From contig CBFDTD010000003.1 in the NCBI GenBank assembly GCA_965612745.1, positions 1,816 to 65,815 of the forward strand: DNA of 64,000 nt. Direction: 5' to 3'. Source of the DNA: an uncultured bacterium (GTDB lineage Bacteria; Chloroflexota; Anaerolineae; B4-G1). Position numbers and translations under genes: made by a program. Shown here piece by piece: positions 3,922-60,032 of the stretch (position 1 is the first letter of the stretch; the number at the start of each line of letters is the position of its first letter). The notes beneath the pieces are model-generated. The model was given only the letters and a program-made list of their open reading frames with translations, was not told where the DNA came from and searched no databases.

Positions 3922-4722
3922 TCAGTAGTGAATATTGACCGGCGTGCCCACCGAGGCCCAATTGTAGAGCCACTGAGCCTCGGATGTGGGCAGGTTGACG
4001 CAGCCGTGGCTCATCGGATGGCCGAAGTTCGAGTGCCAGTAGGTGCCGTGGAGGCTGTAGCCCCGGTAGAAGTACATCGTGTAGGGCACGTCGGGCAGGT
4101 AATAGCCGGGGCCGGACATATCGTCGGAGATGTATTTGACGTAGATGCGGTATTGGCCTGTGGGAGTCGGCGTGCCTGGCAGGCCGGTCGAGACGAGCGT
4201 GCTGCGCACGGGCGTGTTGCCTTCATAGGCGATGAGCCGCTGTGCGCTGAGGTCAACGTCAATCCAGCGACCGCCGGTCGGGGCGGAGGGCGGGGGAGAT
4301 GGAGCGGGACTTGCGCTGCTAGGGATGTGCAGCACCTGCCCGACGCAGATGAACGAGGGGTTGCGGATACCGTTCGCCTGCGCCAGCGCCCACATCGAGA
4401 CGCCGTACCGCAGGGCGATGGACGAGAGTGTGTCGCCGCGCTGCACGGTGTAGGTCTGGCCCGATGAGGCAGGTTGGGCTGACGTCGCAGGCGCGGTCGC
4501 ACGGCCTGGGAGCACCAGCCGCTGCCCGGCGTAGACGCGGCCGGTGTTGACGATGCCGTTGGCGGCTGCCAGTGCCTGGACGGTCGTGCCGTAGCGCAGC
4601 GCGATGCGGAACAGATTCTCCCCCCGCTGCACGACGTGGATGATAGGCCCCTGGGCGAGAACCGGCGCGGCCAACGCCAATGTCAGCGCGAGCATTGTAG
4701 TGAGTAGCAATACTTTGCGCAT
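3922..4722 (-). CDS. LysM-LysM-L,D-transpeptidase (YkuD domain) secreted protein
   Basis: Signal peptide [24 protein letters not shown], two LysM-like repeats ([18 protein letters not shown]...), and C-terminal [20 protein letters not shown] (Ldt His/Cys catalytic motif). Start moved to M17 (RBS GGAGGAG). Confidence 0.8.
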
Positions 4723-4819
4723 CGTCTCCTCCCCTCTCCCGCCCACTACAGGCCCCTGCCCATCCTCCAACGCTCACAAGCCGGCGTCGTAAGCGACACC
4801 GTCGGCGATCCATATTAAC

Positions 4820-4848
4820 ATTATACAGTATCCGCAGAAAAATTGCCA
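4820..4848 (-). promoter_or_regulatory. Candidate sigma70 promoter for the Ldt gene (TTGGCA-N17-TGnTATAAT on minus strand)
   Basis: rc of 4843-4848 is TTGGCA, 17-nt spacer, rc of 4820-4825 is TATAAT preceded by TG. Confidence 0.3.
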
Positions 4849-4884
4849 ACCGGAGCGTTCCCGCCACTCGAATCCGCGTAGAGC

Positions 4885-4918
4885 CCAAAAAGTAAAGGCA
4901 GGGTTGTGTAACCCTGCC
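4885..4918 (-). terminator. Rho-independent terminator downstream of hsp20
   Basis: Hairpin GGCAGGGTT-GTGT-AACCCTGCC at 4897-4918, followed on the minus strand by a T-rich tract (plus-strand AAAAAGTAAA). Confidence 0.45.
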
Positions 4919-4939
4919 TCTACCTGCTTAAGTGCCTTG

Positions 4940-5386
4940 TTATTTGCCTTTGACTTTGATGACCTTTGGCTTTGTCTCCTCGGACTTAGGCAGAGTGAGC
5001 GTCAGCACGCCGTTCTCGAAGACCGCCTCGGCCTTATCTGCATCCACAGGCACGTTGAGCGTCAGCGTGCGCGAGAAGGCACCATAAGGCCGTTCCTGGA
5101 ACAGGTACTCGACGTTCTCCAGCGGCGGCCGCAACTCCCCCCGGATGCTCAGAGTGTCACCTTCAATGGTAATATCCACCTCATCAGGGGTCAGCCCTGG
5201 CAACGATGCGGTGATGACAATCTCCTCCGGGGTCGTGTACACGTCTAGTGGGAGCCGGAACGGACGCTCCCGTGTGCCCTCTCCCCAATTTCGTGTCGGG
5301 CGCACGAAACTTTCCTCAAAGAGCCGATCCATTGCCTCGCGCAAGGTCATCATCTCGCGCCATGGATCCCAACGTGTCATAGTCAT
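4940..5386 (-). CDS. Hsp20/alpha-crystallin family small heat-shock protein
   Basis: 148 aa. Alpha-crystallin domain pattern (LPLDVYTTPEEIVITASLPG...AVFENGVLTLTLPK). RBS GGGAGGTGAT. Confidence 0.85.
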   Translation of the reverse strand: MTMTRWDPWREMMTLREAMDRLFEESFVRPTRNWGEGTRERPFRLPLDVYTTPEEIVITASLPGLTPDEVDITIEGDTLSIRGELRPPLENVEYLFQERPYGAFSRTLTLNVPVDADKAEAVFENGVLTLTLPKSEETKPKVIKVKGK

Positions 5387-5452
5387 CTCATCACCTCCCT
5401 GCTTTCATAGGGACTTGTGGGGGGAGATTCAATCTCCCCCCATATTTGCTGA

Positions 5453-5908
5453 TTACTTGCCCTTGGCCTTGACCTTGATCGTCTTGGGCCTGACCTCTTC
5501 GGCCTTGGGCAGGGTCAAGGTCAGAATACCGTTCTCGAACTCGGCCTCTGCGTCGTCGGCCACGACCGGGACCGGCAGAGTTAGCGAACGGCAGAAGGAG
5601 CCATAGCGACGCTCACGGCGAATGTAATTCTCCTCTTTGACCTCTTCCTCAGCCTTGGTCTCGCCCTTAATGGTCAGGGTGTCGCCAGCGATGCTGACAT
5701 CCACATCCTCGGGCTTGACGCCGGGAATGGCCGTCTTGACAACGATGGCGTCATCGGTCTCATACATGTCTACGGCCAACGTTTCCGCCCCTAACGGGGC
5801 CAGCCACCCGGTTCGCGGCCTCACAAAACTTTCCTCAAAGAGTCTGTCCATCGCCTCCCGCAGGCTGATCAGGTCACGGAAGGGCTCCCAACGCACCAGA
5901 CTTGTCAT
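5453..5908 (-). CDS. Hsp20/alpha-crystallin family small heat-shock protein (tandem paralogue)
   Basis: 151 aa, similar to the downstream copy (LAVDMYETDDAIVVKTAIPG...AEFENGILTLTLPK). Confidence 0.85.
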   Translation of the reverse strand: MTSLVRWEPFRDLISLREAMDRLFEESFVRPRTGWLAPLGAETLAVDMYETDDAIVVKTAIPGVKPEDVDVSIAGDTLTIKGETKAEEEVKEENYIRRERRYGSFCRSLTLPVPVVADDAEAEFENGILTLTLPKAEEVRPKTIKVKAKGK

Positions 5909-6083
5909 CTCTGCACCTCCTTACTTACCAGGTTTGATGGTAGAATCTCATACCGTTAACAAGCGTCCTTATTCTTAGCATCATTCCATTAGATCGGCAT
6001 AAGAGCCGTATTAGAAATATACTAGAAATAGAAATGCCCCCGCAATGTGGGCAGGGGCAAGGCCCAAATGAACAATAAGGTAC

Positions 6084-6131
6084 GGAGGCCCGGCTTCAGC
6101 CGGGAAATCCCCGCTGAAGCGGGGCCTCCGG
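6084..6131. repeat. Core-only copy of the MITE-A hairpin module (GGAGGCCCGGCTTCAGCCGG-AAATCCCCGCTGAAGCGGGGCCTCCGG)
   Basis: Sequence identity to the internal hairpin pair of the 99-bp element. Lacks the GGCTAAAAT ends. Confidence 0.6.
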
Positions 6132-6167
6132 ATGGGGTCTCCGGATGTCTCTGGATGGTTTTTTCCT

Positions 6168-6938
6168 TCATGCCCCGGCGGGCAGTGATGGGAGAGACCC
6201 GCTTGAATTTTCAGACACGCTCTCGGAGGATTGCTCTTTGCGGAAATCTATGAAGCGGTATCCCACCCCGCGCTCGGTGAGGATGTAGCGAGGGTGGGAT
6301 GGATCGGGTTCGATCTTCTGCCGCAGGTAGGTGATGTATAGACGTAGGTAGTGGATTTCCTCACGATATTCGTAGCCCCAGACCTTGGCCAGCAACGTCT
6401 CGTAGGGCACCACCCAGCCAGCGTTTTCGATCAGGTGATAGAGCAGGCGGAATTCAGTGGGGCGCAACTTGATGCGCTTCCCTTCGACGATGACGTGTTG
6501 GCTGTTGAAATCCACACTTAACCGGTCATCAATGCGAAGGATGGCCTTTTCGGGCATCACCGGCCCCCGAGTGCGGCGCAGCACTGCTCTGACGCGGCTG
6601 ACGAGTTCGCGTGCACCAAAGGGCTTGGTCACGTAATCGTCAGCCCCTAGTTCCAGCCCACGTACCTTGTCCTCCTCGTCGGCCCGAACGGTCAGCATAA
6701 TCACCGGGACATTGGAGATCTCGCGCAGCATCTCCAACGTCTCGAAGCCATCCAGTTCGGGCATCATCACATCGAGGATGACCAGGTCGGGTAGGTGCGT
6801 GCGCACCTTATCAAGCGCCTCCAGACCGTTGTGGGCCTCTATCACCCGGTAGCCTTCCAGTTCCAGGTTCATACGGATGAAGCGCGTCATGCGGGCCTCG
6901 TCATCCACGACGAGGATAAGTTCACGTTGATTAGACAT
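6168..6938 (-). CDS. OmpR-family two-component response regulator (receiver plus winged-helix)
   Basis: LVVDDE...[14 protein letters not shown]...VIMLT receiver motifs. C-terminal trans_reg_C ([25 protein letters not shown]). Start taken at MSNQREL (RBS GGGTGG). Confidence 0.85.
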
Positions 6939-6959
6939 ATTTAGCCACCCTGGCACACG

Positions 6960-7202
6960 CTACTCGCGGATGAAACTGACGATCTTCTCCTCTTCCTCGC
7001 TGGGCAGGATCTCCACGCAGTGGATGCGTGTCCAGGGGAAGATCACCTTGCTGCTTTCGGGGAGAATGTAGGAGACATCGCGGCCATCACGGCGCCTGAC
7101 GTTGGTTACGACCAGCACCTGGTCGGTGGGTTCGGGAATGCGCTCTGTCTCGGCCACAATGGCATCCTCGTTTAATAAATGAATCATCACAGTATAAGGC
7201 AT
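6960..7202 (-). CDS. Hypothetical 80-aa protein in the STK-PP2C-vWA-FHA operon
   Basis: Strong RBS AGGAGGG 6 nt upstream of ATG. 4-nt gap to the response regulator gene. No family recognised. Confidence 0.5.
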   Translation of the reverse strand: MPYTVMIHLLNEDAIVAETERIPEPTDQVLVVTNVRRRDGRDVSYILPESSKVIFPWTRIHCVEILPSEEEEKIVSFIRE

Positions 7203-7230
7203 ACGCTACCCTCCTGGGTCTATCCGTGGT

Positions 7231-7743
7231 TCATTGCCGGATGGTGATTTCCAGTTTGATGTGGCCCAACTGAAGTTCATCCCCATCCTTGAGCACATGA
7301 GGCAAATAGGGAGTTAAACGCTTTCCATTCAGAAAGGTGCCGTTGGCACTACCGACGTCCTCAACCAGGTAAGTCGGGCTGCGCTGGTGAATCTTACAAT
7401 GGCGGCGCGAGACCCCACCTTCGAGTCCTCCATCAGGGGTGAGGTCCAGATCGGGAAAGATGCCGTGTGCTATATCGAGACGCCCGATATGCACTTCGGC
7501 TTTGGAGGGTAGTTGGACCTGGCGGCCCGTGGGCAGAACCTTGATGTGTAATGGGACGAGGAGGGCCTCGTCAGTCTCCTTAACGGGCTCGCCGACCGCG
7601 CACTTCGTTTGCGAAGTGGTCAGTTCGTCTTCGGTAAGTAGGTCAGTCCGCAGAGGGCCGCCGGTGGGCAGGTATAATCCGCATTCGCTGCAGAACAATG
7701 TGCCAGGACGATGTTTATGCCCGCAATACGGACATTCAATCAT
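7231..7743 (-). CDS. Zinc-ribbon plus FHA-domain protein
   Basis: N-terminal CPYCGHKHRPGTLFCSECG zinc ribbon. C-terminal FHA (HIGRLDIAHGIFPDLDL...VSRRHCKIHQ...YLVEDVGSANGTFLNGKRL). Confidence 0.8.
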   Translation of the reverse strand: MIECPYCGHKHRPGTLFCSECGLYLPTGGPLRTDLLTEDELTTSQTKCAVGEPVKETDEALLVPLHIKVLPTGRQVQLPSKAEVHIGRLDIAHGIFPDLDLTPDGGLEGGVSRRHCKIHQRSPTYLVEDVGSANGTFLNGKRLTPYLPHVLKDGDELQLGHIKLEITIRQ

Positions 7744-17804: not shown

Positions 17805-17903
17805 GGGTGTGGCTAAAATCAGTGGGACGTCCGGCTTCAGCCGGAAAATCCCCGCTGAAGCGGGGCCTCCGGCCTTTTCTCCCCACGAATTTTAGCCAGA
17901 CTC
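17805..17903 (+). mobile_element. MITE-A full copy (99 bp), TIR GGGTGTGGCTAAAAT / ATTTTAGCCAGACTC, flanked by 9-bp TSD GTTTTGCAC
   Basis: Direct repeat GTTTTGCAC at 17796-17804 and 17904-17912. Terminal inverted repeats of about 15-18 bp. Internal hairpins CCGGCTTCAGCCGG and CCCCGCTGAAGCGGGG. Confidence 0.8.
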
Positions 17904-25042: not shown

Positions 25043-27094
25043 CTAAGGGATGGTCATGGTTTGCAGGGTCACAAAGTCGCCAGCCGGAGCACCGGACGAA
25101 TCCAGTACCGCGACCCGGCCTGCGTCTTCCGTATATAAGCCTACTCGTATGGAGTAGGAGCCGGGTGGCAGGGCCGTCTCAAGCAACACCTGGTGGAAAT
25201 CCACGACGGTCTCGCCCACCGTCCACCTGTCGGTGGAATAAGTCCACAGCGCCGGAATGCCATCGTGCTGAGCGACCAACTGACCGGCCGCATCCATCAC
25301 GTGCACGAAGACCTTAAGCATATCAGTCACCGGCTGAGTGGCCTGCCAGTACAGGTACACCCCCAGACGCTGGCGATTGTTGCGTCGTGGCTCGTCGTCG
25401 CAGAGATACGTTTCGTAGCCCTTCAGCGTGATACCGTTCGCCCAAGATGCGTCTATCGGCTGGTACGAGAGTGGTTCGTCTAATACCCTGTAGATTACGT
25501 ACTTGCGCTTCTCCTCCACGTACACAGGGGCCAGGCCCTCGGGTCGGCTTTCGGGCGAGAGCAGGAATTGCAGGTTGGGATACAGGGATACGCCGGTGTC
25601 GCGGTCGTAGATGAAAAACCAATAGTCGCCACGCTGAAGCAGTTCCAGCAGAGCCTCATATGATTCCAGCCTTGGGGCAATGGCGAACGCCATCGCGAAA
25701 CGGCGCTTCCACGGATCGGCCACATCGTGGTAGCGCAGGTGAGTACTGTACACCTGGTCAGCAGATTGCATGCCGGCTGCGTGCAGCGTATTGCTCACTT
25801 CGAGCGTCCCCCGGTCTTTTGGATTGCTTCGCATAAACCGTAGTGGATACCCTATGCTCCAGATGGTCAGGAGTATCATCACGGGGATGCGCAACGGGAC
25901 CGCTCCTCGTCGCATCCTGATTTTGGCCGGCAGGATCGTCCACAGGAAGTACACCGTGGTGAACACCAGCGTCGGCATCAGCACGATGAGAAATCGCTTG
26001 TCCAGTCGGATGAAGGAGAGCAAAGCCACGATGCCGACGACGTACAGGCCCAGGAACGTCCGGACGGAGCGCCTGAGTCCGGTGGGGGCCAGCAGCGTGA
26101 AGAGTAACCCGGCCTGCATCAGCGGCGCGAAGGGGGCGTCCAGCACTACCGCGTCCTGGGTCACCCAGAAACTGCGAAATTGAGCCAGCCAGTGGGTGAC
26201 CAACTCTCTCGGATAGGCGCGTATGACCTCCCACACGGGTATATCCATCGGCACGGCGTTCCAGTCGAAGATGTAGTCGCTGCTGCCGGTGAGGTGGAAC
26301 CAGAGATTATGCGCTTGAGTGGTATAGAATGGGTTTCCTTTAACCAGGGTGCTGGCGATTAATTGAGGGGCTGCTCCCACCGCTGCGCCAAGTAGATATA
26401 CGCCAGGCACCGACCACCATCCGCGCTCCCGTCGGGCCCACGCGCATCCCACCAGGTAGAGAGCGCACAGGAGGATGGTCAGCGAGGCAGTGTACCGGAT
26501 GAGGTAACTGAGGCCGGCGAGCAAGCCAGACCAAAAGGCTACGCGGCGTCGCCGTCCGTCTGTGAACAGAGTGGCGAGGGAGCAGATTTGCAATCCCCCC
26601 GCCAGCATATCCGTGCTGTCCAGGCTGGCAAAGAAGAGGTAGTGTGCAGTGCAGGCCAGGATCGTTTCGGTGAACAGGGCCAGCGTCCAACTCCCCGTCA
26701 TCCGCCGGATGAGCAGGAAGGCCCCCAGCAGCCCCAGAATCCCACCGGCGATGGAGAGCGCGAAGGCGGTACTCAGGACGTCGAGACCCAGCGCCACCCC
26801 CAGGCGCAGCAATAGCGGGTAGCCCAGCGGATATAGCCCATCCACCCACTGCCACTGGGCCAGGTGGTGCGGGTCAAATCGGGCAGCCCGCTCCGCCCAG
26901 GCGAAAAAGTCGGGGTAGCGAACGGTGACCTGACCCGCAACACGGCGCACCTCCACGGTGACGAAGGCCAGGGCAATGACCCAGGCGGTCAGTATGCCGC
27001 ACCAGCGTTGCCACGCGGAGGGGATCGCACGGGCGCTCGTCTCCTGGGCTGGCGGTGTGCCATCGGCGTTTCTCGAACGATGCGCTTCGCTCAC
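25043..27094 (-). CDS. GT-C fold membrane glycosyltransferase (GT39/ArnT/PMT_2-like) with a C-terminal ~130-aa beta-rich domain
   Basis: At least 10 predicted TM helices, DxD-like loop in the first periplasmic loop, 683 aa. The C-terminal domain is shared with the 57906-58775 protein. Confidence 0.6.
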   Translation of the reverse strand: MSEAHRSRNADGTPPAQETSARAIPSAWQRWCGILTAWVIALAFVTVEVRRVAGQVTVRYPDFFAWAERAARFDPHHLAQWQWVDGLYPLGYPLLLRLGVALGLDVLSTAFALSIAGGILGLLGAFLLIRRMTGSWTLALFTETILACTAHYLFFASLDSTDMLAGGLQICSLATLFTDGRRRRVAFWSGLLAGLSYLIRYTASLTILLCALYLVGCAWARRERGWWSVPGVYLLGAAVGAAPQLIASTLVKGNPFYTTQAHNLWFHLTGSSDYIFDWNAVPMDIPVWEVIRAYPRELVTHWLAQFRSFWVTQDAVVLDAPFAPLMQAGLLFTLLAPTGLRRSVRTFLGLYVVGIVALLSFIRLDKRFLIVLMPTLVFTTVYFLWTILPAKIRMRRGAVPLRIPVMILLTIWSIGYPLRFMRSNPKDRGTLEVSNTLHAAGMQSADQVYSTHLRYHDVADPWKRRFAMAFAIAPRLESYEALLELLQRGDYWFFIYDRDTGVSLYPNLQFLLSPESRPEGLAPVYVEEKRKYVIYRVLDEPLSYQPIDASWANGITLKGYETYLCDDEPRRNNRQRLGVYLYWQATQPVTDMLKVFVHVMDAAGQLVAQHDGIPALWTYSTDRWTVGETVVDFHQVLLETALPPGSYSIRVGLYTEDAGRVAVLDSSGAPAGDFVTLQTMTIP

Positions 27095-30051: not shown

Positions 30052-30081
30052 CAACTTTGGGACAAGTTGTCAACTTGTCCC
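30040..30081. terminator. Perfect 16-bp stem hairpin between convergent genes (bidirectional terminator candidate)
   Basis: GGGACAAGTTGACAAC-N10-GTTGTCAACTTGTCCC. A partial third copy GGACAAGTG lies upstream. Confidence 0.5.
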
Positions 30082-32624
30082 TACACTACCTTTACTGCTG
30101 AGCCCTCTGGTGTCTTGGTCACCTCGATGCGTGCCGGGAATGCATCCTTCAACTCGTCAATGTGCGTGATGACCAGCACACGCGCAAAGTCGTCTTGAAT
30201 GGCATTGATAGCCTCGACCAGCCGTTCTCGACCCTGCGCATCTTGCGTGCCAAATCCCTCGTCAATCACCAAGGTCTGCAACTGCGCCCCTGCCCGCCGC
30301 GCCAGGAGTTTTGAGAGCGCGACGCGGATGGCGAAGTTGACGCGGAATTGCTCGCCTCCAGAGTAGTTTTCGTAGGGCCGCGTCCCTAGTTCATCGGCAA
30401 TCTTGATCTCCAGCGTCTCTCGCACCTCGCCCGCCAGCGTCTCCCGCTGCGTATCGAAGCGCACGTGCATACGACCACCGGTCATGCGCGCCAGAAGCCG
30501 GTTGGCCTCGGCCTCGATCTCCGGCACTGCCGCTTCGATGATCATCGCCGGCACGCCTTTGACGCTAAAGGCAGCCTTCAGTTCCTCGTAGATGGACTGT
30601 TCGGCGGCCAATTCATCCCGCCGCTTGAGTTTGTCCGCTCGTTGTCTCTCAAGGGCCTTGCACGCCTCCAGCCGCTGCTGGGCTGCACCTAAGCGCTGGC
30701 GGGCAGCGGCCTCCTCACCGCGCACCCGCTGCAACTCCGCCTCGATCGCCGGTGCACCCTTCAGCTGCTCCCGCAGTTCACCGGCTTTCTGTTCTAACTC
30801 CCTCCGGCGGGCCTGCTCAGCCTCAATTTGCTTCTGCCATCGCTGTTCGGCCTTTTCCAGCCGCTTGAGCGCTGCTTGCTCCTCGCCTACACTCGTCTGC
30901 GCGGCGCTCAACCGTGCCTTCCGCTCGGCAAAGACCTGCCCCTCGGACACCGCCCGCCGCGCGGCTTCGTGGGCCACCGCATCGTAGCCCAGTTCCTCCG
31001 CCTGCGCCAACACTTGCGCCAGTTCGGCCCGCACCTGGGGGGCATAATCCTCTGCAGTCAGTCGCTGTTCCACCGCAGCCAGTTCCGCCTGGGCGGTCTC
31101 CAGCGCCTCGACCGCCTGCCGTCCTTGCTCAATCCGTTCGGCCAGCGCCGCCTTCTGCCTCTGTAACGCCGGCAGGTCACGCAGCAGCCGGTCGCTTGCG
31201 GCGATCTGCTGCTCCAGCGCCCGCGCTCGTTCGGCCAATGACTTGGCCGTCGCCTGATTTACGCGGTATGCATCCCCCCTGGCCTGACCCTCGATCTGGA
31301 ACTGATCCAACAATCGCAGCCTGTGATCGTCGGTTAGGGGCTGCTCACAAAGGGGGCACTCGGCTCCTGCCCGCTCCAAGAGCGTGATTTTCTCCTTGAT
31401 TGCATCCATCTCCACCCGCAGCGCCTCGTTGCGAGCCCGCAACTCTGCCCGCTCCTCAGCAATATGCGCCAGGTCTGCCCGCGCAGCCTCCCGGCTCTCC
31501 GATAACTGCGCCAGGTGAGCCAGTTGTGCCTGCACCTCGTCATATTCGGCCAGGAGCGTCTCATCGGGCAGGCGGCGCTTCAGTTCGGCGATGCGCTGTG
31601 CGATGACCTCCCGCTCCACCTCAAGCCGATGTCGAGCCTCCGATAACTGCGCCTCCAGAATCGTGCGGCGCTCGTTCAGTTCCACCGACTGACGCAGTTT
31701 GGCCCCCAGCGCCTGCTCTTGTTTGACCGCCTGCCGGTAGGCCGCGTACCCGGCCTCGATTTCGTCGGCCCGGGCCAGCAGATCTTCGTACTCGGCCAGC
31801 CGCCTCTCCCGCACAACCCGTTCCTCAGAGAGCGCACGCAATTCCCGCTCTGCCTGAGCGATGCGTGCGGTCAATTCGGTAATCTGCGCCTCAACGTGCC
31901 GGAGTTCCGCTCGCGTCGCCTCTATCCGTTGATAGGCTGCCTGGGCTTCCTGAAGCGCCGCGCTCAGTTCGATCACCACCGCCTGGGCTGTCTGGAGTTC
32001 CGCCTCGTACTCGGCTCTCCGGGCCAGTTCGGCCTCGATCTCCCGCAGGCGCACTTCGATCATCTCCATCTCGGATCGGATGGCCCGCAGCCGTTCTTTA
32101 GCCCGCTCCTCATAGACCGTCCAGCGGTCGAGCCCCAGGATGTCTCCCAGCACACGCTTCCGTTCGGCGGGGGTCTTGACGGTGAACTCGTCGGCGCGGC
32201 CCTGGCGGAGGAAGGCCGAGTTGATGAAGGTTTCGTAGTCAAGCCGAAGAAGGCGCTCGATCTTCGCCTGGGTGGCCCGCACACCGCTCTCGGCGATAGA
32301 ACGCCAACGTCCGCCGCCTTGGACCTGGAACTCAAGCAACGTACTACCACGCTTGCCGGCCTTGCGTCGGCGCAGCGCACGATAGGTCTGCCCCCCCAGA
32401 GCGAACGTGAACTCGACCGCCATCTCGTCCTCGCCCATGCGGATCAATTCGTCGTCCCGTCTGGCCCGTGATCTGCCCCACAGCACCCAGGTGATGGCGT
32501 CCAGGAGCGCCGACTTGCCCGCGCCGTTTTCGCCGGCCAGGCATGCGACGTGGATGCCAGCGAAGTCTAAATTCACCTGGCGGTAGCACATGAAGTTGGT
32601 GAGGGAAAGGGTTTGGGGGATCAC
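30081..32624 (-). CDS. SbcC/Rad50-family SMC-like ATPase with zinc hook
   Basis: Walker A GENGAGKSALLDAI. Long coiled coil with CPLCEQP zinc hook in the middle. Signature SGGEQ and Walker B TLVIDEGFGTQD. Start revised to GTG at 32624 (VIPQTLSLTNFMCYRQVNLDF matches the SbcC N-terminus). No sbcD adjacent. Confidence 0.75.
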   Translation of the reverse strand: MIPQTLSLTNFMCYRQVNLDFAGIHVACLAGENGAGKSALLDAITWVLWGRSRARRDDELIRMGEDEMAVEFTFALGGQTYRALRRRKAGKRGSTLLEFQVQGGGRWRSIAESGVRATQAKIERLLRLDYETFINSAFLRQGRADEFTVKTPAERKRVLGDILGLDRWTVYEERAKERLRAIRSEMEMIEVRLREIEAELARRAEYEAELQTAQAVVIELSAALQEAQAAYQRIEATRAELRHVEAQITELTARIAQAERELRALSEERVVRERRLAEYEDLLARADEIEAGYAAYRQAVKQEQALGAKLRQSVELNERRTILEAQLSEARHRLEVEREVIAQRIAELKRRLPDETLLAEYDEVQAQLAHLAQLSESREAARADLAHIAEERAELRARNEALRVEMDAIKEKITLLERAGAECPLCEQPLTDDHRLRLLDQFQIEGQARGDAYRVNQATAKSLAERARALEQQIAASDRLLRDLPALQRQKAALAERIEQGRQAVEALETAQAELAAVEQRLTAEDYAPQVRAELAQVLAQAEELGYDAVAHEAARRAVSEGQVFAERKARLSAAQTSVGEEQAALKRLEKAEQRWQKQIEAEQARRRELEQKAGELREQLKGAPAIEAELQRVRGEEAAARQRLGAAQQRLEACKALERQRADKLKRRDELAAEQSIYEELKAAFSVKGVPAMIIEAAVPEIEAEANRLLARMTGGRMHVRFDTQRETLAGEVRETLEIKIADELGTRPYENYSGGEQFRVNFAIRVALSKLLARRAGAQLQTLVIDEGFGTQDAQGRERLVEAINAIQDDFARVLVITHIDELKDAFPARIEVTKTPEGSAVKVV

Positions 32625-32737
32625 TTCAACACACAACGCACCATGCGCCGCACAACGGCGACGATCAGCGCCTCCAACTGGCTTGTGGTAAGTTGAACGA
32701 CCGCTTGATCTGGTAATAGGGCCACAATCTCGCTCAC
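32621..32737 (-). CDS. Candidate 38-aa small ORF translationally coupled to the SbcC-like gene
   Basis: RBS AGGAGA 8 nt before GTG. Its TGA stop overlaps the GTG start of the SbcC-like gene (GTGA). Hydrophobic peptide MSEIVALLPDQAVVQLTTSQLEALIVAVVRRMVRCVLK. Confidence 0.25.
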   Translation of the reverse strand: MSEIVALLPDQAVVQLTTSQLEALIVAVVRRMVRCVLK

Positions 32738-32942
32738 GGAAAGTCTCCTGTCGTTCTAACATACATACTATACCACGAAGTGTCATGTTATACCAATGCC
32801 GCCACCTTTTTTCTTAGCACCCCAATGTGGGACTGATTCACAGGTCGAAAGAGTGCCAAAAACAGGCCGGTTGTTAAGAAGTTTGTTTAGAAGTCTATGC
32901 TATTCTATTATCAAATTTGACATTTTGTTAAGGAGGATAACG

Positions 32943-33140
32943 GTGGAGAACAAACGCGGTAAGGTGACCCTAGTGCTGATGACCCTGGTGCTGTTATTGG
33001 TGTTGGCCCTCGGCCCCGTGGCCCCTGGTCTGGGTGCGCGGATGGCGGAACCCAGGGGCGGTACGGTGGAGATGTGGGACGGGCTGCACGGCCTGTTGGC
33101 AGATCCAAGTGCTGGTGCCGGTAGTGGTGGGGGGTAAACT
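32943..33140 (+). CDS. Small secreted or membrane peptide (65 aa, TM helix plus Gly-rich tail)
   Basis: Strong RBS AAGGAGG 6 nt before GTG. MENKRGKVTLVLMTLVLLLVLALGPVAPGLGA...SGGG. Confidence 0.4.
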
Positions 33141-33356
33141 ATGCCCACACGTGGGATTGATGAGTTGGTCTGGATGGCGCTCACCGATTCCGCCTTCCGT
33201 GAGCAGTTGCTTAACGGCCATCGCCGCGAGGTACTGGCTTCCCTCAGCCTCACGGAAATGGAGCAACAGGCCGTGATGGCGGTTAAGGCTGACACGCTGG
33301 AGGACTTCGCCGGAGCGCTCTGCCGGCCGGCATTCAGCATGGTAGCCTGTCTCTAG
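33141..33356 (+). CDS. NHLP/Nif11-like leader-peptide-type small protein (candidate RiPP precursor), 71 aa
   Basis: LTDSAFREQLLNGHRREVLASLSLTEMEQQAV follows the D-x-x-F-R-x-x-LL...L..L.LT.EE..AL pattern of nitrile-hydratase-type leader peptides. The C-terminal tail ALCRPAFSMVACL carries two Cys. Begins 3 nt after the preceding small ORF, in the same frame. Confidence 0.4.
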   Translation: MPTRGIDELVWMALTDSAFREQLLNGHRREVLASLSLTEMEQQAVMAVKADTLEDFAGALCRPAFSMVACL

Positions 33357-33378: not shown

Positions 33379-33466
33379 GGGTGTGGCTAAAATCAGTGGG
33401 ACGTCCGGCTTCAGCCGGAAAAGCCCCGCCTCCGGCCTTTTCTTCCCACGAATTTTAGCCAGACTC
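33379..33466 (+). mobile_element. MITE-A copy (88 bp, internal 11-bp deletion) with TSD CCGGTCAT
   Basis: Flanking direct repeat CCGGTCAT at 33371-33378 and (T)CCGGTCAT at 33467-33475. Confidence 0.75.
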
Positions 33467-33885: not shown

Positions 33886-34146
33886 ATGAGCATCGCCATA
33901 CCCGCCGTTGAAAGAGCGCAGATTATAAGCAAGGAAAGTGTCGAATCACTCGTCGAGGCTTTGTTCTCCCTAGATGAGCCCTGGCGGGGGCGCTTTCTAA
34001 CCTTGGTGGCTAAGCAGGCCACGAGGTGGAAGTGGGATGGACAACGGCCAGGATGGGAGGAGATGGTAGCCTGGTTGAGTACCGACCCGTGCTTGTACCG
34101 GGAAGTGGCGCTGCTGCTGGATGCGTGGCGGAGACCGGCGAGATGA
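33886..34146 (+). CDS. Hypothetical 86-aa protein between two MITE-A copies
   Basis: RBS GGAGGTGG then ATG. No recognised domain. Confidence 0.4.
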   Translation: MSIAIPAVERAQIISKESVESLVEALFSLDEPWRGRFLTLVAKQATRWKWDGQRPGWEEMVAWLSTDPCLYREVALLLDAWRRPAR

Positions 34147-34162
34147 CCGATCCCAATCATTG

Positions 34163-34256
34163 GGGTGCCGCTAAAATCGGTTGGACGTCCGGCTTCAGCC
34201 GAAAAATCCCCGCTGAAGCGGGGCGTTTGGCCTCTCCTCCCATTCATTTTAGCCAA
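34163..34256 (+). repeat. Degenerate MITE-A copy
   Basis: GCCGCTAAAATCGGTTGGACGTCCGGCTTCAGCCGAAAAATCCCCGCTGAAGCGGGG...CATTTTAGCCA. Ends are diverged. Confidence 0.6.
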
Positions 34257-34300
34257 TTTTCCACTGTTCCCCTTCCATGCTATAATCCGCTGCCACGGCT

Positions 34301-35059
34301 ATGTCTCTACCCTGTCAGATTCAATTGTCTGTCTTCGAGGGCCCGTTGGACTTGCTCCTCCATCTCATTGAGCGAGAGGAACTCGACATCACCACGGTCG
34401 CACTGGCCAAGGTAACCGACCAGTACCTGGCTTACCTGGCGGAACTGGAACGAGGGCAGATAAAAGAACTGGCGGATTTCCTCGTTGTGGCAGCGAAACT
34501 CCTGCTTATAAAGTCTCAAGTCCTACTACCGCGCCCTCCTTCGCCGACTCCCGAGACCGAAGACGTAGGTGACGAACTGGTGCACCAGTTGCAGGTTTAC
34601 AGACGCTTCAAGCAAGTCGCAGCACTGCTGCACGAGCGGGAGATGCAAGGGTTACACGGTTACGTGCGCATCGTCCCTCTCCCCCCTCTTGAGCCACAAG
34701 TTGACCTGGGCGAGGTGACACTCGACGACCTATTGGCCGCCGTGCAGGAGGCACTAGATGCAAAATCTGCCCCGCCGATCGGAGAAGTTGTCGCGCCTAT
34801 TGTAGTGACCGTCGCCGAACAGATTGCCTGCATTGAGGAGCGACTGACTTGGCAGCGTCGGGTTTGTTTCCGCGAGATCCTCTCAGATACCGCCACCTCC
34901 GTCGAGGTCATCGTGACCCTGTTGGCGCTGTTGGAACTGATCAAGCAAGATCGAGTACGGGTGCGACAGGAACGGCTGTTCGGTGAGATCATCATTGAGC
35001 GGCGGATCCCTGCCGAGGGAGCGCCCGCCGCCGCTCCTGCCACCAGTCCAGCAGCATAG
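34301..35059 (+). CDS. scpA: Segregation and condensation protein A
   Basis: N-terminus QIQLSVFEGPLDLLLHLIEREELDITTVALAKVTDQYLAYL is the ScpA/kleisin signature. Confidence 0.8.
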   Translation: MSLPCQIQLSVFEGPLDLLLHLIEREELDITTVALAKVTDQYLAYLAELERGQIKELADFLVVAAKLLLIKSQVLLPRPPSPTPETEDVGDELVHQLQVYRRFKQVAALLHEREMQGLHGYVRIVPLPPLEPQVDLGEVTLDDLLAAVQEALDAKSAPPIGEVVAPIVVTVAEQIACIEERLTWQRRVCFREILSDTATSVEVIVTLLALLELIKQDRVRVRQERLFGEIIIERRIPAEGAPAAAPATSPAA

Positions 35060-36598: not shown

Positions 36599-36671
36599 AC
36601 CCCCTCAACAACGAACAGCCGGGGCACGGAGATACACGGCCCCGACACTCACACTACTCACCAAGTTGAGA

Positions 36672-37081
36672 TTAACGCCCGCCGATACCCTTGCTATGGG
36701 CAAGGATTGACTCAGGCCCAACGACCCTCAAACCATCTGCATCAAACATCTGCCAGTCACCAACGTCGTAGGTGTAGACTTTGCGCACCCCTGCAACCAA
36801 CGCCGCTGCTGCGTGGCGGGCATCGTGCACCCGTCTTGCGGTGAGGCCGTGACTGGCTGCCAATTCGACCGCAAGCAGGATCACCTCAGCGCTCCATATA
36901 CCTCACTCAGAATGCCAGCCGTAGTGCAGGCAAACAACTCACCACGACGTGCGCGCTCGACTAACAGCCGCGCCTCCTGATGGCGAGGATCCCCCTTGAG
37001 CAGAGCCCCGATAAAGACGCCCGCGTCCAATAGCACGCTCTGGGACACATTGCCTCCCTTAACTCTCGGCATAGACGGCAT
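36672..37081 (-). pseudogene. PIN-domain VapC toxin split by a frameshift into two ORFs (36881-37081 and 36672-36884)
   Basis: N-terminal part VLLDAGVFIGALLKGDPRHQEA; C-terminal part LTARRVHDARHAAAALVAGVRKVYTYDVGDWQMF. The two frames overlap at GTGA and are fused by a 1-nt shift. Confidence 0.55.
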
Positions 37082-37271
37082 CCTTCCAACCTCTGGGCAC
37101 GTAGCCTTCTAATACAGGAAGTGGTTTTAGGCGCGGCCTCGGCTCAATGGTGACTTCCTCGCCGTCGGGCATACGTACAACGAGGCGTGTATAGCGCCTA
37201 GCCACGTCCCACAACACCTCTTCCAAGGACCGCTCCTTAATATCATCCAACACCAGAGTTTGGGTCGTCAT
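37059..37271 (-). CDS. Putative VapB-type antitoxin
   Basis: 70 aa. RBS GGAGGT 6 nt before ATG. Directly upstream of, and overlapping, the PIN gene. Confidence 0.5.
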   Translation of the reverse strand: MTTQTLVLDDIKERSLEEVLWDVARRYTRLVVRMPDGEEVTIEPRPRLKPLPVLEGYVPRGWKDAVYAES

Positions 37272-37383
37272 GTCCTTACCTCCAACAACGCCACTCCTGC
37301 GCCGCATCTACATACCCCACCGGCTATGAGAAAGCAACCATCGGGCCGCAGCCCGAAGGGGCCGACCATCACGATGTGCATAT

Positions 37384-39932: not shown

Positions 39933-40742
39933 GTGAACCTCGAAATTGGCCTCTCTACCGCCGCCCTCTACCCCTCTCACCTGACCGAGGACGCGCTGAC
40001 GACCATCGCGGGGCTTGGCTTCCGCACGGTCGAAATCTTCCTCCAGGCTGAGGAGGAGTACACCCCGACCTTCGGCGCGGAACTCGACCGACGGCGGCGC
40101 GACCTGGGGTTACGTGTGCACTCGTTGCACCTCTACGTCCCTTACTTCGATCTCTGGTCCCCCTATCCCCGTATGATTCAAGAGACCCGCGCCCGCTTTC
40201 GGCGCTTGTTGGAGATTGCGACTACACTAGAAGCCCGCGCTCTCACCTGGCACGGGCTGCGCTACGGCGTGGACAATCCCCGCCTGATCGCCGCTTTCTT
40301 CGAAAGTGCAGCCTGGGCCGGCGAGCAGGCTCAAACCGCCGGCGTCACTCTCTGCATCGAAAACGTCAGTTGGTGCTACTTGCGCACCCCCGACCAGGTC
40401 ACGGCCATCCGCCAGGCCGACCTACCCGTCGGCTTCACCTTCGACACCTTCCAGGCCGGCGAAAGCGGCACTGACCCTGCTGCCCTCATCCGCGCGATGG
40501 ACAGCCGCCTCGCCACCGTGCACCTGGCCGACTACGCCCCAGGTGGGCCGCGCCACCTGCCCCCTGGTGAGGGCACCCTGGATTGGCCGTCTATCCTGCA
40601 AGCCCTACAGGCCGTGGGTTACGATGGTCCGCTCATTCTCGAACCGGCTCACGTCGAGAATACCACCATCCTCCTCCGCGCCCGCGATTTCGTGCAGCAG
40701 GCATTGACCAATGTGGCACTTACCGAGAACCGAACTCCCTGA
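39933..40742 (+). CDS. Sugar phosphate isomerase/epimerase (xylose isomerase-like TIM barrel)
   Basis: GFRTVEIF...LHLYVPYFDLWSP...LCIENVSW pattern of the AP-endonuclease-2/TIM-barrel family. GTG start. Confidence 0.6.
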   Translation: MNLEIGLSTAALYPSHLTEDALTTIAGLGFRTVEIFLQAEEEYTPTFGAELDRRRRDLGLRVHSLHLYVPYFDLWSPYPRMIQETRARFRRLLEIATTLEARALTWHGLRYGVDNPRLIAAFFESAAWAGEQAQTAGVTLCIENVSWCYLRTPDQVTAIRQADLPVGFTFDTFQAGESGTDPAALIRAMDSRLATVHLADYAPGGPRHLPPGEGTLDWPSILQALQAVGYDGPLILEPAHVENTTILLRARDFVQQALTNVALTENRTP

Positions 40743-41805
40743 GCAGGTCTGCAAACTGTGCGGCGCACGCTCGCACCTCATTGCCGCCCACCTGGGCGTG
40801 TGCCTGGCTTGCATCCGCAGCCGCCCCCAGGAGGCGCTGGAGATCGCCGATGCCGCCCACGCCGCCGCCCGCCGTCTCTTCGGCCTGCCGGAGCGACCGC
40901 CCCGCACCGAGGAGGGCCGCCGCTGCGGACTGTGCGCGCAGGATTGCGTCATCGGCGAGGGGGAGCGCGGCTTCTGTGGCCTGCGCGAGGTGCGCGACGG
41001 CAAACTGCGCCACCTGGCCGGCACCCCCGACCGGGGCCTACTCCACTGGTACCGCGATCCCCTGCCCACCAACTGCGTCGCCGACCCATTCTGTGCCGGG
41101 CACACGCAGCGTGGCAAGCACAACCTGGCCGTCTTCTACGCCGCCTGCACCGTGGACTGCCTCTTCTGCCAGAACTGGCACTTTCGAGAGAGCGACCCGT
41201 TCCACTCCGATAAACTCACCGCCAGCCAGTTGGCCGAGGCCGCCAACCCGCGCACCTATTGCGTCTGCTACTTCGGCGGCGACCCCGCCAGCCAGATGCC
41301 GCACGCGCTGGCCGCCAGCCGCCTCCTGGCCGAACGTGGCATCGTCATCTGCTGGGAGACGAACGGCACTGCTCACCCTCGCCTGATGGACCGTGCCCTT
41401 GATCTCTCTCTTGCCACCGGCGGCTGCGTTAAGTTCGACTTGAAAGCCTTCGACGACAATCTACACCGCGCCCTCACCGGGGCCAGCAATCGCCGGACGC
41501 TTGCGAACTTCGCCCGCGCCGCCGCCCGCTTCGACGAGCGTCCCGAACCGCCCCCCGTCGTCGCCAGCACGCTCCTCGTGCCCGGCTACGTGGACGCCGA
41601 GGAGGTGGGCCGCGTCGCCCGCTTCATCGCCGACCTGGACCCGCGCATCCCCTACGTCCTGCTCGGCTTCGCGCCCCACTTCTTTTTCCCCGACCTGCCG
41701 CGTACCTCCGTGCGCCACGCCGAGGAGGCCGAGGCCGCCGCCCGCGCGGCCGGCCTGACCCGCGTGCGCATCGGCAACCGCCATCTGCTCTCCCGTGACT
41801 ACTGA
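40711..41805 (+). CDS. Radical SAM enzyme of AmmeMemoRadiSam type (PFL-activase-like) with an extra N-terminal Cys-rich extension
   Basis: CGLCAQDCVIGEGERGFCGLREVRDGKL then ACTVDCLFCQNW (CxxxCxxC), and C-terminal PYVLLGFAPHFFFPDLPRTS...VRIGN. The N-terminal 60 aa hold CKLCG...CLAC. The start (overlaps the upstream gene by 32 nt) is uncertain. Confidence 0.6.
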   Translation: MWHLPRTELPEQVCKLCGARSHLIAAHLGVCLACIRSRPQEALEIADAAHAAARRLFGLPERPPRTEEGRRCGLCAQDCVIGEGERGFCGLREVRDGKLRHLAGTPDRGLLHWYRDPLPTNCVADPFCAGHTQRGKHNLAVFYAACTVDCLFCQNWHFRESDPFHSDKLTASQLAEAANPRTYCVCYFGGDPASQMPHALAASRLLAERGIVICWETNGTAHPRLMDRALDLSLATGGCVKFDLKAFDDNLHRALTGASNRRTLANFARAAARFDERPEPPPVVASTLLVPGYVDAEEVGRVARFIADLDPRIPYVLLGFAPHFFFPDLPRTSVRHAEEAEAAARAAGLTRVRIGNRHLLSRDY

Positions 41806-41852: not shown

Positions 41853-42024
41853 GGGTGTGGCTAAAATCAGTGGGACGTCCGGCTTCAGCCGGAAAATCCC
41901 CGCTGAAGCGGGGCCTCCGGCCTCTTCTCCGGCTTCAGCCGAGCAGGACGTCCGGCTTCAGCCGGAAAATCCCTGCTGAAGCGGGGCCTCCGGCCTTTTC
42001 TCCTCACGAATTTTAGCCAGACTC
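41853..42024 (+). mobile_element. MITE-A copy with internal duplication of the hairpin core (172 bp), TSD TTGTGATAT
   Basis: Direct repeat TTGTGATAT at 41844-41852 and 42025-42033. Two tandem GACGTCCGGCTTCAGCCGGAAAATCC..GCTGAAGCGGGGCCTCCGGCC units. Confidence 0.8.
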
Positions 42025-48316: not shown

Positions 48317-48415
48317 GAGTCTGGCTAAAATTCGTGGGGAGAAAAGGCCGGAGGCCCCGCTTCAGCGGGGATTTTCCGGCTGAAGCCGGACGTCCCACTG
48401 ATTTTAGCCACACCC
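48317..48415 (-). mobile_element. MITE-A full copy (inverted), TSD AAATAATGT / AAATAATAT
   Basis: Flanking 9-bp repeats at 48308-48316 and 48416-48424 (8/9 identical). Confidence 0.75.
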
Positions 48416-59933: not shown

Positions 59934-60032
59934 AGCCTGGCTAAAATTCGTGGGGAGAAAAGACCGGAGGCCCCGCTTCAGCGGGGATTTTCCGGCTGAA
60001 GCCGGACGTCCCACTGATTTTAGCCACATCCT
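59934..60032 (-). mobile_element. MITE-A full copy (inverted), TSD TATTGATAC
   Basis: Perfect 9-bp direct repeat at 59925-59933 and 60033-60041. Confidence 0.8.

Follow-up and report, generated by a model that had tools for sequence, protein, structure and literature searches.

The 64,000-nucleotide (nt) stretch analyzed here (hereafter the window; contig CBFDTD010000003.1 of assembly GCA_965612745.1, positions 1,816 to 65,815 of the forward strand), which derives from an uncultured Chloroflexota bacterium of the class Anaerolineae (lineage B4-G1), harbors two tandem small open reading frames (ORFs), designated ORF1 and ORF2, and a third small ORF, ORF3, located downstream of the pair. We propose that these three genes form a small-protein operon driven by a SARP-type activator, representing a module of regulator plus small-protein signaling akin to AfsR/AfsS, an interpretation which in our judgment stands at about an even chance of being correct. 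Small proteins resembling the nitrile hydratase leader peptide (NHLP) and Nif11 families are routinely annotated, and mined, as precursors of ribosomally synthesized and posttranslationally modified peptides (RiPPs), and a preliminary description of the region had ascribed the layout of such a precursor to ORF2. Because a maturase or exporter is not conserved in the vicinity of the pair, and because a STAND-TPR-SARP regulator and signaling-type neighbors are, a regulator-controlled small-protein operon describes this layout better than an orphan RiPP precursor does. The features concerned, all located on the plus strand, are the following, with product lengths in amino acids (aa).

32871-32882 and 32883-32894, +: two tandem 12-nt direct repeats, TTGTTAAGAAGT and TTGTTTAGAAGT, a SARP-box-like candidate site replacing the -35 element
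32871-32894, +: the 24-bp repeat box as a whole, TTGTTCAGAGGTTTGTTCAGAGGT
32901-32906, +: -10-like hexamer TATTCT, 6 nt 3′ of the second repeat
32930-32936, +: Shine-Dalgarno sequence AAGGAGG of ORF1, 6 nt 5′ of the GTG and kept upstream of ORF1 homologues
32943-33137, +: ORF1, GTG start, TAA stop at 33135-33137, 64 aa, MENKRGKVTLVLMTLVLLLVLALGPVAPGLGARMAEPRGGTVEMWDGLHGLLADPSAGAGSGGG
33126-33134, +: G-run GGTGGGGGG, Shine-Dalgarno-like for ORF2 as read from the sequence, overlapping the end of ORF1
33141-33356, +: ORF2, ATG start, 71 aa, locus tag DRI79_03785, MPTRGIDELVWMALTDSAFREQLLNGHRREVLASLSLTEMEQQAVMAVKADTLEDFAGALCRPAFSMVACL
33886-34146, +: ORF3, 86 aa, 57 to 64% identical to relatives by tblastn and called on metagenome contigs

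ORF1 and ORF2 are real genes. Both were called by independent gene callers on six metagenome contigs of the same organism (from Guaymas Basin and other sediment samples), which share 99.3 to 100% identity with the window over 1.5 kb around the pair, with at most 10 substitutions and no insertions or deletions. At least 120 clusters of ORF2 homologues and 26 ORF1 homologues, the latter present in databases as called proteins and all unannotated, were recovered, and the ratio of nonsynonymous to synonymous substitution rates (dN/dS) of ORF2 ranged from 0.11 to 0.21 when the window was compared with ten relatives. The preliminary description was thus right about the presence of the tandem and about the 71-aa length of ORF2. 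It had given ORF1 a length of 65 aa from position 32931; the ORF is indeed present, but it specifies 64 aa from a GTG at position 32943, position 32931 falling inside the Shine-Dalgarno sequence.

The neighborhood of the pair was surveyed by clustering all ORFs of 28 close loci and the window, followed by tblastn across 49 sources, which yielded approximately 48 related loci (the 28 close and 20 more distant); the metagenome scan was run with a subset of the wide ORF2-family alignment. The pairing is conserved, as an ORF1-like ORF ends 3 to 17 nt 5′ of the ORF2 homologue in nearly all 28 close-clade loci, and an ORF1 equivalent is present in almost every related locus; in a distant clade, a 52-aa ORF1-like ORF ends 36 to 166 nt upstream. 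The shared reading frame and the TAA-ACT which alone separates the two ORFs, both pointed out previously, hold for the window but are not conserved in related loci: the gap is 3 nt and in frame in the window and some loci, and 4, 11, or 17 nt, in other frames, elsewhere. Read-through of the ORF1 stop codon, for which a check had been advised, and a fused ORF1-ORF2 product were consequently rejected, since gap length and frame both vary among loci. The last three glycine codons of ORF1 (GGT GGG GGG) constitute the sole Shine-Dalgarno-like sequence serving ORF2, and this overlap suggests that translation of the two ORFs may be coupled, in which case peptide tail and coupling signal would coincide in the close clade.

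A gene encoding a regulator of approximately 1,070 aa is located directly upstream of the pair, on the same strand, in 20 of the 23 close-clade related loci with enough upstream DNA and in all 13 loci of more distant clades, where identity is only 31 to 47%. This linkage across deep divergence (33 of 36 related loci for which sufficient upstream DNA is available) has the window as a further exception; in L031, for example, the regulator corresponds to 4337-7567. Its N terminus contains a MalT-like P-loop and its C terminus a BTAD domain (PF03704, E = 1e-24), in front of which lies an OmpR-type winged helix; TPR_MalT/TPR_12 repeats are also present. This domain set identifies the regulator as a STAND NTPase with a SARP output domain. 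Its family comprises more than 400 members (406 homologues), annotated as MalT, SARP, or BTAD regulators, and ORF2, not ORF1, is its most conserved and most widespread partner.

Operator-like repeats are conserved in front of ORF1. In the close loci, the order of elements 5′ of ORF1 is a terminator hairpin of the regulator gene, two repeats (close-clade consensus TTGTTCAGAGGT, twice), a 6-nt spacer, a -10-like hexamer (TATTCT/TATACT), and, 25 to 40 nt past the hexamer, an AAGGAGG ribosome-binding site. Repeats and -10 box could be aligned in register in 15 loci, including the window, and the T..TA..T columns of the hexamer are invariant in this alignment; the equivalents in other clades are TATACT and TATAAT. 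A degenerate form of the two-repeat pattern occurs once in the 64-kb window versus zero occurrences expected by chance, and in related loci it is found essentially only 5′ of ORF1, at the matching position and orientation. In a distant clade, another repeat (ACGTTTACCCCT, two to three copies) occupies the equivalent position before TATAAT, which is the pattern expected for an operator that co-evolves with its DNA-binding domain. SARP targets are direct repeats one helical turn (11 bp) apart, of which the 3′ repeat, with 8 bp separating it from the -10 element, overlaps the -35 element, and AfsR, a SARP-NOD-TPR protein, binds the afs box centered at -29.5 in the promoter of afsS, thereby activating the gene for the regulator AfsS (PMC10936776). 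The geometry of the promoter described here is close to, but not identical with, this published rule; the box in the window would be centered at approximately -30 if transcription starts some 7 nt after the -10 box. It is to these repeats that the SARP domain presumably binds.

The gene located 3′ of ORF2 varies, and its product was a signaling-type protein in every locus checked. One type is a Peptidase_M78/IrrE-like protein in which HExxH is replaced by a conserved A-R-E-L-Y-V, and which occurs with or without an approximately 70-aa C-terminal domain or a receiver domain; others are a HisKA/HATPase kinase, tandem receiver domains, a GAF-HD protein, and, as judged by eye, a MEDS-like-PAS kinase-like protein. 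Polysaccharide genes (Bac_transf, GT4, Wzy_C, and UDP-GlcNAc 2-epimerase) often follow the cassette and are evident candidate members of the regulon. ORF3 of the window, which matched no Pfam family, is homologous to the approximately 70-aa domain (motif EALFSLxEPWRGRFLxLVA...W...DAWxRP), which in relatives is either free-standing or C-terminal on the degenerate Peptidase_M78 protein. The window has no M78 domain; its ORF1-ORF2-ORF3 form is shared by about half of the close clade.

Biosynthetic enzymes, by contrast, were not among the conserved partners. Across the approximately 48 loci, no recognizable cyclodehydratase, lanthionine synthetase, ATP-grasp, radical SAM-SPASM, or peptidase-ABC exporter gene was a conserved neighbor. 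No ATP-grasp gene was present in any locus examined, no GNAT, HEXXH/gluzincin-like, or SagB-type dehydrogenase gene was situated beside an ORF2 homologue, and no maturase was found in the annotations of the contigs of the window organism or of the other contigs read. The preliminary description had itself remarked that no maturase or transporter adjoins the pair and that the nearest radical SAM gene is some 7 kb away, both of which were borne out. That gene (approximately 7.4 kb downstream) was rejected as the missing maturase, since its presence in the vicinity of ORF2 homologues is not conserved. An anti-phage defense system was likewise rejected, PADLOC being blank for ORF1, ORF2, and ORF3 and returning only a generic TPR match for the STAND protein and only a weak CapP-like match for the M78 protein.

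The assignment of ORF2 to the NHLP-type proteins was sustained in part. Its only real match in NCBIfam was NF038399 (“Os1348 family NHLP clan protein”; E = 3.6e-7, residues 6 to 60), a model which was also matched by all 26 aligned relatives (best E = 1.2e-8); however, the two leader models by which recognition had been anticipated, TIGR03793 and TIGR03798, gave no match to the window ORF2 at E ≤ 10, and among the 26 relatives a single one touched TIGR03793 (E = 0.084) and none matched TIGR03798 at E ≤ 1. The NF038399 score of ORF2 (30.2 bits) lies below the curated cut-off of 40, and the single Pfam match, PF14407 (Frankia_peptide; E = 5.6e-6), reaches 27 bits against a gathering threshold of 48. 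On this profile evidence, ORF2 is homologous to the NHLP/LigA-like clan and lies outside the curated boundaries of RiPP-precursor families. Of the precursor layout attributed to it, the clan homology stands; the sub-threshold scores, a tail of typically seven residues, and the lack of a conserved maturase do not fit. The LigA-like fold group includes PF14407, Nif11, ComX, and the N terminus of nitrile hydratase alpha, to which the D-x-x-F-R-x-x-LL motif of ORF2 aligns, and stand-alone regulatory subunits (LigA and the N terminus of TglI) belong to it as well (PMC12353581); the origin of the PF14407 family, the members of which are graspetide-type precursors, has been described elsewhere (PMC8939145).

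The ORF2 homologues retrieved by a word-indexed search (at least 120 clusters) are mostly 68 aa long and 62 to 83% identical, and those with a named source belong to metagenome-assembled genomes (MAGs) of Anaerolineae/Chloroflexota. A FAGALC motif is invariant in their alignment, its cysteine (C61) being present in 120 of 120 homologues, and the tail which follows C61 comprises exactly seven residues in 87 of 115 (range, 2 to 15; consensus [QR]-P-x-[FL]-x-G-A). No Gly-Gly-type cleavage motif was apparent at the junction of domain and tail in the homologue alignment. The window ORF2 ends in ALCRPAFSMVACL and does possess the two tail cysteines reported for it; only C61 is conserved, however, the second being found in 15 of 115 homologues, so that the two-cysteine tail of the window is idiosyncratic. 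An exhaustive profile search of 1.84 billion representatives extended the family to 260 clusters at E ≤ 1e-3. These wider relatives (80 to 150 aa) have a helical domain of approximately 63 residues in common, carry unalignable, low-complexity tails, and do not conserve the cysteine.

An AlphaFold2 model of ORF2, built from a 26-sequence alignment, consists of five to six short helices with a mean predicted local distance difference test (pLDDT) score of 77, residues 65 to 71 being disordered (pLDDT below 50). Foldseek comparison of this model with the PDB gave nothing significant (6lk7 at a template modeling [TM] score of 0.48 to 0.51, E = 8.5), profile searches of the PDB with the ORF2 family returned only the N-terminal helices of nitrile hydratase alpha (E = 0.2 to 1.3), and profiles of the ORF2 relatives failed to retrieve the 6lk7 sequence. 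Natural domain fusions of the ORF2 fold were considered and rejected, as longer database entries look like mis-called starts; one of these, P0165, has a receiver-like stretch at its end and a further gene immediately 3′, and is no clear fusion. Paralogues of ORF2 were observed in some loci: a Thermoflexia MAG (L013) carries tandem copies at 2135-2362 and 2499-2705, with tails QPAFCVA and QPGFARP, and L011 and nine Thermoflexales-type loci harbor an additional, more divergent NHLP-like paralogue of approximately 100 aa 3′ of ORF2.

ORF1 had been described as a secreted or transmembrane peptide, and an N terminus resembling a signal peptide or transmembrane segment is present. In the window, its N terminus is basic (ENKRGK), the hydrophobic core spans 15 residues or more, the middle is variable, and the C-terminal tail (AGAGSGGG) is rich in Gly; a putative signal-peptidase site, judged by eye, lies at GLGA/RM (the slash marking the cut). 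An alignment of 29 homologues from two clades revealed one to four Lys/Arg residues within the first eight positions, a 15-residue core of mean Kyte-Doolittle hydropathy 2.2 to 3.4, and, as assessed manually, A at -1 and A/V/T/L at -3 in most; cleavage-like sites other than that of the window include GVAA/R, GAFA/R, and IVYA/NP. At the C terminus, a Pro residue is followed by a Gly-rich tail (e.g., DGGGSGA, GGGSSGG, or GGGDGCGGG). ORF1 thus has the properties of a Sec-type signal peptide or an N-terminal membrane anchor, its cleavage being a prediction. That the Gly-rich tail is a mere by-product of the ORF2 Shine-Dalgarno sequence was rejected, since a GGGxGCGGG tail persists in the distant clade, where ORF2 starts 36 to 166 nt further on. 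In one clade, a DUF5317 membrane protein occupies the place of ORF1.

According to the reading which we favor, a large STAND-type SARP activator of transcription would have ORF1, ORF2, and the 86-aa ORF3 as its output, in the manner in which AfsR activates afsS. At a promoter without a -35 element, the two 12-nt repeats (centered near -30) would recruit the SARP domain to a position beside the TATTCT -10 element, and the resulting transcript would be translated with ORF1 and ORF2 coupled. ORF1 is predicted to enter or cross the membrane by means of its Sec-type N terminus, its Gly-rich tail then being exposed outside the cell or released as a peptide of approximately 32 aa. ORF2 would remain in the cytoplasm as a folded, helical protein-binding adaptor of the NHLP/LigA-like type rather than as a disposable leader, and its C terminus, FAGALC-[QR]P-x-F-x-G-A, would most likely engage either the regulator's TPR sensor or the variable signaling protein encoded downstream. 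As the regulator gene is not adjacent in the window, the operon would have to be driven in trans.

A number of observations weigh against this reading. No STAND-SARP regulator is encoded in the 64-kb window, and among the best 120 of the 406 regulator homologues, most of which are nameless entries, none bears the locus-tag prefix of the window MAG. Most loci have repeats with a period of 12 nt (11 in a few), the canonical value being 11, and the spacer between repeats and -10 element is 6 to 7 nt, the published one being 8. In four loci (L008, L010, L029, and L033) the ORF1 equivalent has no hydrophobic segment, and export of ORF1 may consequently not be essential. Moreover, the nearest named relatives of ORF2 (Os1348, PMC7726476; PF14407) are regarded as RiPP precursors, and an invariant cysteine followed by a variable tail has the look of a pheromone precursor. 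Contact of ORF2 with the regulator, or with any partner, is to be read as a proposal, and so are the biochemical roles given to the small proteins. Regarding the missing regulator, L010 and L034, which also have no adjacent regulator gene, have lost the repeat box, whereas that of the window is intact, an argument for ongoing control of the operon in trans.

In the alternative that retains most of the original description, ORF2 would be the precursor of a RiPP or of a pheromone of the ComX/AgrD type, with a helical NHLP-like leader, a C61 modified by an unlinked enzyme, and a short C-terminal peptide (ALC-QPGFxGA or similar) that, once cleaved off, would be exported to serve as a signal or antibiotic; the SARP would be a pathway-specific activator of the precursor gene. 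We consider this unlikely, though deserving of serious attention. Homology to the NHLP clan, PF14407, and the Os1348 family is in its favor, as are the genetic link of Os1348 to antibiotic activity (PMC7726476), the membership of the ComX leader in the LigA-like fold group (PMC12353581), and the status of secondary-metabolite genes as classic SARP targets (PMC10936776); the cysteine invariant in 120 of 120 homologues, with a variable tail that is disordered in the model, would also suit such a precursor. Against it, no recognizable maturase, protease, or exporter gene is a conserved neighbor in approximately 48 loci of several clades, and ORF2 falls below every curated family cut-off, with the NHLP and Nif11 leader models unmatched. 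The tail, which may be as short as two residues, is not preceded by a double-glycine cleavage motif, and in the wider family the cysteine is not conserved and the tails are long, of low complexity, and not enriched in Cys, Ser, or Thr. The helical domain is under strong purifying selection, with 62 to 83% identity across orders, as also befits a folded functional protein. A second alternative assigns the signal to ORF1, which would be a pro-peptide comparable to Phr, PapR, or AimP: following Sec export and cleavage after an A-x-A-like site, its Gly-rich C-terminal fragment would be sensed by the TPR region of the STAND-SARP protein, directly or after re-import, so that the operon is auto-induced, and ORF2 would be an accessory chaperone or processing adaptor. 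All 29 homologues possess a basic n-region and a hydrophobic core 15 or more residues long, with position -1 taken by a small residue and position -3 by a small or aliphatic one, and the predicted mature part is only approximately 12 residues in the distant clade (e.g., NPAGGGDGCGGG). The gene adjoins that of a TPR transcription factor whose presumed site lies in its promoter, giving the positive-feedback layout typical of peptide quorum sensing. We nevertheless judge this possibility, which likewise deserves serious attention, doubtful, and somewhat more so than the precursor, since a Gly/Ser-rich tail carries little information for a specific signal, four loci have an ORF1 without the hydrophobic segment, the DUF5317 membrane protein substitutes for it in one clade, and no oligopeptide permease (Opp) or processing protease is linked to the cassette; furthermore, among the partners of the regulator, it is ORF2 which shows the strongest conservation and the widest distribution, and the cleavage site was judged by eye.

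It is also conceivable that the cassette of the window is a decaying remnant, the regulator having been lost or moved and insertions resembling miniature inverted-repeat transposable elements (MITEs) having separated ORF2 from ORF3, with the small ORFs neither expressed nor needed any longer. This would account for an SbcC-like gene being located upstream in place of a STAND-SARP gene, for an ORF2-ORF3 distance of 530 nt, including a MITE-like hairpin, versus approximately 140 to 300 nt in relatives, and for an ORF2 tail (RPAFSMVACL, 10 aa) which departs from the 7-aa consensus. Decay is disfavored by the intact state of the ORFs and promoter, and appears very improbable: all three ORFs are uninterrupted and have good ribosome-binding sites, the repeats and -10 box are retained where two other regulator-less loci have lost them, the 1.5 kb around the pair has at most 10 substitutions and no insertion or deletion across six contigs from different samples, and an ORF1-ORF2-ORF3 form without the M78 domain is natural in about half of the close clade. 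The favored regulator-driven operon can, finally, be extended to a hitherto undescribed peptide circuit common to the Chloroflexota, in which a STAND NTPase-TPR-SARP protein would act as receptor and activator, with a secreted Gly-tail peptide and an invariant-Cys NHLP-fold protein as partners, the operon being auto-induced via its tandem-repeat promoter and the TPR ligand being either small protein or a Cys-linked product of the two. This bolder version is offered as a speculation that we ourselves consider unlikely.

The remaining features of the surroundings are as follows.

30081-32786, -: SbcC-like gene, in the place of the regulator upstream of the pair
33379-33464: MITE-like 86-nt element, starting 23 nt after ORF2, with terminal inverted repeats GTGTGGCTAAAATCAGTGGGA ... 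TCCCACGAATTTTAGCCAGAC
34158-34255: diverged MITE-like copy directly after ORF3, 88% and 81% identical to the first copy in two segments
17811-17855, 41859-41903, 48365-48409 (-), and 59981-60025 (-): further MITE-like copies, from a repeat analysis of the window
40711-41805: radical SAM gene, approximately 7.4 kb downstream of the pair

The placement of the pair between an SbcC-like gene and MITE-like elements, as given in the preliminary description, was confirmed. The SbcC/Rad50-like gene specifies SMC_N, AAA_23, Rad50 zinc hook, and SbcC_Walker_B domains; no SbcD-like gene was called adjacent to it, and its called length ranges from 836 to 893 aa across the strain contigs. At least five MITE-like copies in the window show 0 to 1 nt of difference to the query over 45 nt, and the copy after ORF2, which folds at -53.3 kcal/mol (z = -5.8), may act as a hairpin terminator or stabilizer. 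A structured RNA in the region was rejected, the sole indication being a sub-threshold Rfam match to RsmY (20 bits versus a gathering threshold of 57); this match (34204-34308, minus strand, E = 0.036) overlaps the second MITE-like copy and is probably a chance match to the hairpin. Elsewhere in the window, a 683-aa ORF without a Pfam match (25043-27094, minus strand) lies between pheS-like and pheT-like genes, and Thermoflexales-type loci such as L020, L026, and L030 have homologues of it, approximately 673 aa long, close to the cassette. Between the GT4 and GlmS genes, a segment of approximately 790 nt (36599-37383; L001 13532-14131) contains three ORFs of approximately 63 to 70 aa and, being present on L001, L003, and L005 and missing on L002 and L004, represents a strain-variable insertion.

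Taken together, these data suggest that one branch of the NHLP-type fold leads a different, regulator-coupled life. The branch is abundant (more than 120 close-clade clusters, 260 wider-family clusters, and more than 400 cognate regulators), and the partners conserved with it, a STAND-SARP activator, a Gly-tailed peptide of predicted export, and interchangeable signaling proteins, do not include biosynthetic enzymes. For genome-mining pipelines, it serves as a warning that such genes ought not to be counted as orphan RiPP precursors. To our knowledge, almost no transcriptional regulation has been characterized in Anaerolineae and Thermoflexia, for which the cassette provides a concrete candidate circuit of operator, promoter, regulator, and outputs. 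Should one of the small proteins prove to be a signal, peptide signaling would be extended to the Chloroflexota; should the three-part circuit be true, peptide quorum or envelope sensing would exist outside the paradigms of the Bacillota and Actinomycetota, with a RiPP-leader fold re-used as a signaling protein. A literature search returned no description of an ORF1-ORF2-regulator cassette. New here are the genetic context and the ORF2 branch itself, a sub-threshold one within a known fold clan; the logic of regulator plus small protein has a known precedent in AfsR/AfsS.

Comparison with known systems places the cassette at the intersection of several. In RRNPP signaling, a cytoplasmic HTH-TPR receptor is encoded next to a secreted pro-peptide, a C-terminal fragment of which is re-imported. 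Like the Rap/Phr, PlcR/PapR, and AimR/AimP pairs, the related loci combine a small ORF having a Sec-type N terminus with an adjacent gene for a TPR transcription factor, and the conserved peptide part is the extreme C terminus of ORF1; unlike in those pairs, the presumed receptor is a STAND NTPase with a SARP output, and two small genes are present instead of one. ComX, in which a LigA-like leader precedes a short, variable C-terminal pheromone with one invariant modified residue (PMC12353581), is a further point of comparison, although no ComQ-like, Opp, or processing genes are linked to the present cassette, which, in addition, occurs outside the Bacillota and is known from genes alone, unlike the RRNPP and ComX systems.

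ORF2 itself shares with Frankia_peptide and the NHLP/Nif11 precursors an N-terminal helical, LigA-like domain bearing the D-x-x-F-R-x-x-LL signature. It differs from precursors of the PF14407, TIGR03793, and TIGR03798 families in having a tail of typically seven residues in place of a Gly-Gly site and core, and no ATP-grasp, cyclodehydratase, radical SAM, or peptidase-containing ABC transporter (PCAT) gene as a neighbor. Os1348 of Pseudomonas sp. Os17 (PDB 6lk7), an 85-aa, dimeric helical protein presumed, but unproven, to be a bacteriocin precursor, is likewise a small all-helical protein (five to six helices) with a flexible C-terminal end (PMC7726476). Its structure is a six-helix, comma-shaped fold which forms a homodimer; the resemblance of the ORF2 model to it is weak (TM score of 0.48 to 0.51), and the Foldseek E value of 8.5 is not significant. 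The OS3 cluster of Os1348, unlike the loci of ORF2, includes GNAT, HEXXH-peptidase-like, and SagB-type dehydrogenase genes (PMC7726476).

The closest correspondence in layout is to AfsR-AfsS of Streptomyces, in which a STAND/NOD ATPase, a TPR sensor, and a SARP (an OmpR-type winged helix-turn-helix plus BTAD) are likewise united in one regulator of approximately 1,000 aa, and in which the target promoter, having no good -35 element, carries two tandem repeats centered near -30, just 5′ of the -10 element (PMC10936776). The adjacent target gene in both cases encodes a small protein, the likeness drawn here between the present proteins and AfsS being one of layout. The domain order of AfsR (SARP-NOD-TPR) is reversed in the regulator described here, where a MalT-like NTPase is followed by the TPR region and a C-terminal SARP, and the repeat period is mostly 12 nt rather than 11. 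The present module, moreover, belongs to the Chloroflexota, the regulator is unlinked in the window, and the output would not be a single AfsS-like protein but a pair or trio of small proteins, comprising a secreted or membrane-bound Gly-tail peptide and an NHLP-fold protein.

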